Assembly (NCBI RefSeq): GCF_017348835.2
Contig: NZ_CP071375.1
DNA from: Escherichia coli
Lineage (GTDB): Bacteria > Pseudomonadota > Gammaproteobacteria > Enterobacterales > Enterobacteriaceae
DNA length: 64,000 nt
Direction: 5' to 3' (one strand)
Below the pieces are notes generated by a model. The model did not search any database. It worked only from the letters and a program-made list of their open reading frames with translations, and was not told where the DNA came from. Below, in pieces: positions 900 to 1,198 of this stretch (position 1 is the stretch's first letter; each line of letters starts with the position of its first letter). The translations under genes were made by a program, and so were the position numbers.

Positions 900-1028
900 A
901 TGCCTTCTGGAAATCAGGAACCCCGCCGCGATCCTGAATTAAAACGTAAAGCCTGGCTGGCGGTTTTTCTTGGTTCTGCACTTTTCTGGGTGGTTGTCGC
1001 ACTGCTGATTTGGAAAGTGTGGGGATAA
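900..1028 (+). CDS. ymiA: small membrane protein YmiA (42 aa)
   Basis: ATG at 900, TAA at 1026-1028; hydrophobic core LAVFLGSALFWVVVALLIW; remembered K-12 position upstream of yciX. Confidence 0.7.
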   Translation: MPSGNQEPRRDPELKRKAWLAVFLGSALFWVVVALLIWKVWG

Positions 1029-1030
1029 CT

Positions 1031-1198
1031 ATGGTTGGTCAGGAGCAACTGGAGTCGTCACCATTATGCCAGGATAGTGACAATGAACCAGAAACGAAAC
1101 GGGAATGTTCCGTCGTTATTCCAGACGACTGGCAACTAACATCGCAGCAGCAAGCCTTTATAGAACTGTTTGCTGAAGATGATCAGCCGAAACAATAA
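1031..1198 (+). CDS. yciX: small protein YciX (55 aa from MVGQ start; ORF track offers alternative start at 1010)
   Basis: ORF track 1010..1198; ATG at 1031 lies 2 nt after ymiA stop, suggesting translational coupling. Confidence 0.65.
   Translation: MVGQEQLESSPLCQDSDNEPETKRECSVVIPDDWQLTSQQQAFIELFAEDDQPKQ

Follow-up and report, generated by a model that had tools for sequence, protein, structure and literature searches.

The ymiA-yciX-ymiC small-protein operon of Escherichia coli: a conserved stop-start junction and likely translational coupling between ymiA and yciX

The region studied here, part of a 64,000-nt stretch of an Escherichia coli genome (hereafter, the window), is the already known ymiA-yciX-ymiC small-protein operon, whose genes, operon organization, regulation, and third open reading frame have been annotated or published. 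Within this operon, the stop codon of ymiA and the start codon of yciX are separated by only two nucleotides, and the comparative sequence data presented below indicate that this close contact is maintained throughout the Enterobacteriaceae, which makes translational coupling of the two genes likely. We consider it probable that, taken as a whole, an operon model applies in which yciX is translated by termination-reinitiation or by initiation aided by the translation of ymiA. What is new here amounts to small additions to the published picture: the conserved geometry of the junction, the dismissal of a TTG start codon for yciX, a cross-species discrepancy in the ymiA start codon, the extent of the YciX family, and the equivalence of the Rfam entry STnc180 with ymiC.

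The window opens inside cysB, whose coding sequence ends at position 569, and the ATG of acnA lies at 1571; all the features described here are on the + strand. The cysB-acnA intergenic locus (region 560-1580) was found in 5421/5426 complete E. coli genomes, with 100% identity to strain PE164 and 98.7% identity to K-12 derivatives such as J53. A few strains carry an interrupted version of this region, among them H4 (NZ_CP086510.1) and H20 (NZ_CP189662.1): one of these two interruptions is an IS1A-family transposase inside the matched stretch, and in the other the region is found in two places, the break lying beyond position ~580 of the query and close to the 3' end of yciX. RefSeq annotates ymiA (888-1028), yciX (1031-1198), and ymiC (1312-1407) both in PE164 and in K-12 MG1655 (b4522, b4523, and b4741), and the locus shares with that of MG1655 the flanking genes cysB and acnA, the gene order, the strand, and the relative coordinates. 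YmiA and YmiC are 100% identical to their K-12 counterparts and the junction TAA-CT-ATG is the same in both strains. The differences are only allelic, with YciX, also located directly after ymiA in K-12, showing 96% identity to b4523 over 55 aa owing to two substitutions (CQDSDNEPETK in the window, CQHSDNETETK in K-12). The identity of the three genes is thereby established.

Terminator-like sequences frame the three genes. A hairpin followed by a T-run at 583-616 corresponds to the intrinsic terminator of cysB and marks the upstream boundary of the unit, and a GC-rich hairpin with a T-run at 1413-1432, upstream of acnA, closes the operon and is the sole terminator-like site on the + strand between 617 and 1570. 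Since such sites occur only after cysB and after ymiC, a single transcription unit is delimited. For comparative purposes, an alignment of YmiA homologues served to retrieve the loci of 80 genomes, each representing one species of the Enterobacteriaceae, throughout which the synteny cysB-ymiA-yciX-(ymiC)-acnA is kept; the counts out of 81 given below comprise these 80 species genomes and the window itself.

The operon status of these genes and their regulation have been established experimentally. In a 2024-25 study of small proteins induced by low Mg2+, ymiA-yciX-ymiC was handled as an operon, and the published reporters revealed PhoQP-dependent expression that is induced by low Mg2+. PhoQ-dependent reporter activity was detected upstream of the operon but was negligible directly upstream of ymiC, and differential RNA-seq, as cited in the literature, assigns no independent promoter to this last gene. 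In a study of Salmonella, 'yciX' appears among the Cpx-regulon genes induced in egg white. An experimental-evolution paper describes recurrent cysB(+137/+141)/ymiA(-182/-178) polymorphisms, with frequencies of 0.3-0.58, which would fall at ~706-710 of the window according to the given offsets. Because these polymorphisms arose in silver-nanoparticle-selected and control populations alike, they probably correspond to pre-existing variants or mapping artefacts and not to adaptation.

Phylogenetic footprinting over the 80 loci delimited a conserved promoter or 5' region of ymiA at 785-887. It comprises two blocks at 785-830 (TTTAGGATTTG) and 836-858, and a third block of 21 nt at 867-887, directly before ATG 888 (consensus ATGATAAGYGATGTCGATTGT), which is present in nearly all species and is conserved across the Enterobacteriaceae almost as strongly as the coding region. 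The latter could represent N-terminal coding sequence of a 53-aa form, a promoter -10 element with a very short leader, or some other signal. When the PhoP box (KGTTTA-N5-KGTTTA) was scanned for, the best matches were weak (9/12 at 802-818 and 813-829) and consisted of degenerate PhoP-like hexamers with 11-bp spacing at 802-829, within the first conserved block; a scan for CpxR boxes also returned weak matches, the best scoring 7/10. The predicted folding energy of the 5' region RNA was no better than that of shuffled sequences (z = +1.04). With regard to the downstream neighbor, the distal acnA promoter P1 was reportedly placed by Cunningham, Gruer and Guest in 1997 at a start ~407 bp before the ATG of acnA. 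This would presumably map to ~1164 of the window, inside the 3' end of yciX, and ymiC would then also lie on a long acnA leader. No convincing -10 element was seen near ~1164, and the literature search returned nothing on the position of P1.

The first gene of the operon, ymiA (888-1028, stop codon TAA at 1026-1028), is annotated in RefSeq and in K-12 and encodes a 46-aa protein predicted to be tail-anchored in the inner membrane. YmiA matches Pfam PF22868 with 125.9 bits (cut-off 27; residues 1-46) and NCBIfam NF000536 with 96.8 bits (cut-off 30; residues 5-46). The single transmembrane segment that had been proposed for it from the sequence was borne out, as the protein contains one hydrophobic segment, located at the C-terminus (residues 24-42, with a Kyte-Doolittle 19-aa maximum of 2.54) after a basic, cytoplasmic N-terminal part (net charge +4), with a KRK-AW motif that is invariant in the family alignment. 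Published work lists YmiA among predicted tail-anchored proteins and has located GFP-YmiA, as well as GFP-YmiC, at the membrane. Targeted PRM mass spectrometry has detected the 46-aa protein at ~1000-3000 copies per cell. Deletion of ymiA or ymiC causes no phenotype, and overexpression of YmiA leads to a long lag and longer cells.

Three different starts have been annotated for ymiA over time: TTG 864 (54 aa), ATG 888 (46 aa), and ATG 900 (42 aa, 2006). The length of 42 aa assumed in the original prediction goes back to the superseded 2006 annotation and has to be corrected. Indeed, TetRP located the start 12 nt upstream of ATG 900, giving a protein that begins with MRLAMPSGNQ..., and stalled-initiation ribosome profiling with Onc112/retapamulin identified the same start, ATG 888; moreover, exclusive use of ATG 900 is excluded by the detection of the tryptic peptide LAMPSGNQEPR. 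Experiments in K-12 have thus demonstrated ATG 888 as the ymiA start supported in E. coli, and the start of the gene should be given as 888, not 900. The cross-species comparison draws a less uniform picture. At the position corresponding to 888, 56 of the 81 sequences have ATG, 5 have GTG, and 20 have ACG, AAG, or GCG, none of which is a start codon; all 20 species devoid of a start at this position, Kosakonia and Phytobacter among them, have an ATG 21 nt farther upstream that E. coli lacks. The internal ATG at 900-902 (Met5, the start of the 42-aa form) is ATG in 81/81 sequences and is the only ymiA start conserved across the whole family. It is preceded, 6 nt upstream, by GAGG (890-893), with a predicted SD:anti-SD energy of -6.3 kcal/mol versus -4.6 kcal/mol for ATG 888. 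On the basis of these sequence features, dual use of 888 and 900 in E. coli appears possible.

Concerning the junction, the juxtaposition of the ymiA end at 1028 and the yciX ATG at 1031 was confirmed in the sequence and in the list of open reading frames. The ymiA frame ends with TGG GGA TAA and is followed by the 2-nt spacer CT (1029-1030). The last two ymiA codons (Trp45-Gly46) harbor the SD-like element GGGGA (1021-1025; SD:anti-SD energy of -5.5 kcal/mol), which ends 6 nt before ATG 1031. Across species, the last six nucleotides of ymiA are TGGGGN in 78/81 sequences and TGGAGC in 3/81, SD-like in every case (81/81). In 79 of the 81 sequences, a YciX-like ORF of 49-59 aa starts between -4 and +4 nt from the ymiA stop. 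The most frequent spacer is 2 nt (48 sequences), followed by 1 nt (13 sequences), 3 nt (7), -4 nt (4), 0 nt (3), 4 nt (3), and -1 nt (1). In Salmonella enterica, for instance, the TAA of ymiA directly abuts the GTG of yciX (0 nt). The ymiA stop codon itself varies (TAA in 54, TGA in 16, and TAG in 11 of the 81 sequences), and so do the spacer bases; since the spacing is nevertheless kept, the distance appears to be what is maintained. By contrast with this spacer, the one between yciX and ymiC varies by tens of nucleotides between species. In more distant Enterobacterales, the spacer is again 2 nt in one locus (L083), an ATGA overlap is found in another (L084), and a third (L085) shows 13 nt and a separate GAGGA. 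Stop-start juxtaposition and close spacing are routine in bacterial operons. The alignment indicates that the abutting arrangement of ymiA and yciX exceeds what would be expected by chance. No stable RNA structure sequestering the yciX start was predicted, with folding being no better than that of shuffled sequences (z = -0.15), and thus coupling by the unmasking of such a structure is unsupported. A local hairpin at 997-1022 was also considered and discarded, as inspection of other species showed that it is not conserved.

Published work has shown that a single PhoQP-dependent mRNA, transcribed from a promoter upstream of ymiA, carries ymiA, yciX, and ymiC. In the model that we favor, a ribosome terminating at UAA 1026-1028 would already cover AUG 1031, and the GGGG(A) provided by the last two ymiA codons (Trp-Gly) would act as the ribosome-binding site of yciX. 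Most translation of yciX would then arise from termination-reinitiation, or from de novo initiation that ymiA translation facilitates, and the output of YciX would be tied to that of YmiA. The third gene, ymiC, would presumably be initiated independently on the same mRNA from its own SD. Owing to the location of the YmiA transmembrane segment at the extreme C-terminus, this segment would still be in the exit tunnel at termination; it would therefore be inserted only after translation, without any need for the mRNA to be tethered to the membrane. Sequence-level features of translationally coupled pairs were found here: a shared transcript, 2 nt between the two ORFs, no + strand terminator in 617-1412, the TAA-CT-ATG contact, and GGGG (1021-1024) inside ymiA, with conservation in 79/81 sequences. 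We infer the coupling mechanism, and any functional link between YmiA and YciX, from this arrangement, and the conservation of the junction strengthens the case. The literature search returned no experiment on the dependence of yciX translation on that of ymiA.

A serious rival, although in our estimation an unlikely one, is that the two genes are just tightly packed and not truly coupled. Free 30S subunits would then start yciX de novo at its own SD, whether or not ymiA is translated, and the constant distance would reflect an SD locked in the Trp-Gly codons rather than selection for coupling. This explanation has several points in its favor, since the SD-like GGGG lies at a suitable spacing from the yciX ATG, the start is not buried in an inhibitory structure, the distant relative with the 13-nt spacer has an SD of its own (GAGGA), and ymiA exists without yciX in two of the loci (L059 and L079). 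Furthermore, the Trp-Gly codons that form the SD are also constrained as amino acids, and consequently conservation of the SD is inseparable from conservation of the protein. However, purely independent initiation does not readily account for the confinement of the spacer to -4 to +4 nt in 79/81 sequences despite the use of all three stop codons and varying spacer bases. Besides, the yciX SD is only moderate, standing at the 15th percentile when all ATGs of the window are compared. Coupling of yciX to ymiA translation thus remains the preferred reading of the junction.

The codon-level comparisons indicate that both ORFs are under purifying selection. The dN/dS values range from 0.02 to 0.13 for ymiA and from 0.2 to 0.5 for yciX. 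Codon-position entropies are 0.47/0.26/1.16 bits for ymiA; in yciX, they amount to 1.33/1.33/1.59 in the N-terminal half and 0.74/0.55/1.35 in the C-terminal half, with an excess at the third position in ymiA and in the C-terminal half of yciX. The product of yciX (1031-1198), annotated in K-12 and, as 'protein YciX', in RefSeq, is a soluble acidic protein of 55 aa. Among 79 orthologues, residues W34, L36, Q40, F43, and I44 are invariant and P31, F47, and K54 nearly so; the YciX of the window carries the C-terminal motif residues P31, W34, L36, Q40, F43, I44, and F47. AlphaFold2, run with the orthologue alignment, returned one confident helix at residues 38-46 (pLDDT ~90) and low confidence for the rest of the protein. 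YciX is mostly disordered and soluble, with constraint only in the C-terminal ~25 residues (IPxSWxLTxQQxAFIDxF), which include this short helix.

The profile comparisons point to YciX as a genuine, narrowly distributed, and fast-evolving family across the Enterobacteriaceae and beyond. The Salmonella ORF was aligned to YciX by hhalign with 99.2% probability, and searching 1.84 billion representatives exhaustively with a profile recovered only 70 proteins at E <= 0.001, nearly all of 40-100 aa, the distant relatives retaining an IPDSWxL...FI motif. The view of YciX as an orphan restricted to Escherichia and Shigella, suggested by a word-indexed search, was abandoned, given that tblastn on the 80 loci and the exhaustive HMM search found wider orthologues. 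No profile model for YciX was found in Pfam or NCBIfam, and a profile search of the PDB gave nothing below E = 0.2. A relationship with PF24429 ('CSLinker', an algal Rubisco-linker motif) was also rejected: its matches, present in 18/79 orthologues, were below threshold (best E of 0.0056; 11 bits over 11 residues in a single inspected member, for a cut-off of 27) and are attributable to a chance likeness of the short W-x-L helix. Likewise, charge complementarity between a basic YmiA and an acidic YciX was discarded. The net charge of YciX varies from -11 to +5 across species (median +2), which makes its acidity a lineage-specific trait and leaves complementarity unsupported for the family as a whole.

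The distribution of yciX shows some particularities. In S. enterica subsp. arizonae (L059), the gene has been lost or truncated, with a 15-codon remnant following TAA-GTG, and it is absent from L079; ymiA and ymiC persist in both. The persistence of ymiA without yciX in these two loci means that the pair is not obligate. In other Salmonella (L037 and L086), YciX is 56 aa long and its GTG start codon directly abuts the ymiA stop. Databases also hold fusions of 91-97 aa that join the N-terminus of YmiA to a complete YciX (P0006, with 37 member sequences, P0002, and P0041). P0006 fits a deletion of ~20 nt between short direct repeats (TGGTT...TGGTT) at ~971-995, in the region of ymiA encoding the transmembrane segment, and a deletion of this type brings ymiA into the frame of yciX, open from 950 onward. 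The possibility that the two genes are a split pseudogene was rejected, the fusions being deletion or frameshift variants of a two-gene split that is conserved in 79/81 sequences.

These observations bear on the possibility, very improbable in our judgment, that yciX is non-coding, either as a chance ORF in the 3' UTR of ymiA or as part of a single ymiA+yciX gene that was recently frame-shifted, and that only ymiA is translated. The lack of a Pfam or NCBIfam model, the restriction of word-based hits to Escherichia and Shigella, the N-terminal half that evolves almost freely, and the fused YmiA-YciX database entries would all fit such a view, as would the outcome of the literature search, in which direct detection of the YciX protein was not found. 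Against it, an intact ORF of 49-59 aa occupies the same place in 79/81 sequences and in more distant Enterobacterales, five residues of its C-terminal motif are invariant, dN/dS is below 1, variation across codon positions in the C-terminal half follows the pattern of coding sequence, and the split into two genes is itself conserved, with the fusions representing variants generated by deletion or frameshift.

The least probable of the alternatives, which can practically be set aside, is that yciX starts upstream, at TTG 1010 (62 aa) or GTG 1019, and hence overlaps ymiA instead of abutting it: both codons are in frame in a reading frame open from 950, but their SD:anti-SD energies are weak (-2.2 and -3.3 kcal/mol, respectively), position 1010 is TTG in just 8/81 sequences and CTG in 68, the start codon just past the ymiA stop is ATG in 78/81 and GTG in one, and RefSeq and K-12 both annotate 1031. 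As regards the alternative start at 1010 put forward in the original prediction, the in-frame TTG (1010-1012) does exist and overlaps ymiA, as GTG 1019 overlaps the ymiA 3' end, but its use is very unlikely and, since it also lacks an SD, it was judged not to be used and is dismissible.

The third candidate small ORF noted at 1312-1407 exists and corresponds to the annotated and validated gene ymiC, which encodes a 31-aa small membrane protein. Its product matches Pfam PF23694 with 87.5 bits (cut-off 27) and NCBIfam NF041484 with 66.3 bits (cut-off 42), and is identical in sequence to the published protein, for which chromosomal tagging and immunoblots provided the validation; the literature also places this 31-aa ORF on the yciX 3' UTR and gives it no promoter of its own. 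It begins 113 nt past yciX and has an SD of its own (-5.9 kcal/mol). Folding of the RNA spacer between yciX and ymiC gave energies no better than shuffled sequences (z = 0.03). In Citrobacter-like and some other species, no significant tblastn match to ymiC was obtained between yciX and acnA (L027, L040, L046-L048, L052, L053, L056, L062, L064, L068, L069, L071, L054, L072, and L075), indicating that those lineages can dispense with ymiC.

Across the entire 64-kb window, a single Rfam match exceeds the gathering score, namely RF02079, 'STnc180', at 1239-1441 (200.2 bits). Although this family is typed as an sRNA and its match here is full-length, the matched stretch coincides with the ymiC coding region plus the terminator. 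In Salmonella, northern blots of STnc180 showed bands of 500-2000 nt that were judged to be processed mRNA species (Sittka, 2008). The Rfam 'sRNA' STnc180 is thus the 3' segment of the operon mRNA that encodes the small protein YmiC, and as such it concerns ymiC and not the ymiA/yciX junction.

The original prediction regarded this locus as a small-protein hotspot worth functional attention. Such attention has already been given, as the PhoQP-dependent operon, the membrane localization, and an overexpression phenotype are published. The discovery value of the present analysis is accordingly small, the junction being an ordinary operon junction, and its useful outcome lies in corrections and small additions; nevertheless, the family-wide geometry makes ymiA/yciX coupling worth a reporter test. 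A more ambitious interpretation, which we regard as speculative and rather doubtful, would see in YmiA and YciX a two-part module whose synthesis is matched by the stop-start junction, the YciX helix docking on YmiA or on an envelope-stress signaling protein in low-Mg2+/PhoQP, and possibly Cpx, responses, with YciX constituting an unrecognized Enterobacterales family. If this were true, YciX would be not an Escherichia-only orphan but a family spread across the Enterobacterales that lacks a Pfam or NCBIfam model.

The trpE-trpD and trpB-trpA junctions, with overlapping UGAUG, are translationally coupled, and the dependence of the downstream gene has been demonstrated by experiment. The ymiA/yciX junction resembles them in having the stop codon within a few nucleotides of the start codon and an SD inside the upstream gene. 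Coupling in the trp operon, however, rests on experiment, whereas at ymiA/yciX we infer it from conserved geometry only. Closer comparators are mgtS-mgtT and yriA-yriB, which belong to the same low-Mg2+ stimulon. These pairs overlap out of frame, whereas ymiA and yciX are separated by 2 nt, and, unlike in these pairs, the downstream product YciX is soluble and, with 55 aa, exceeds the usual 50-aa cut-off for small proteins. Like ymiA and yciX, both pairs consist of very small adjacent ORFs carried by one PhoQP-dependent transcript, with the stop codon of the first in contact with the start codon of the second.
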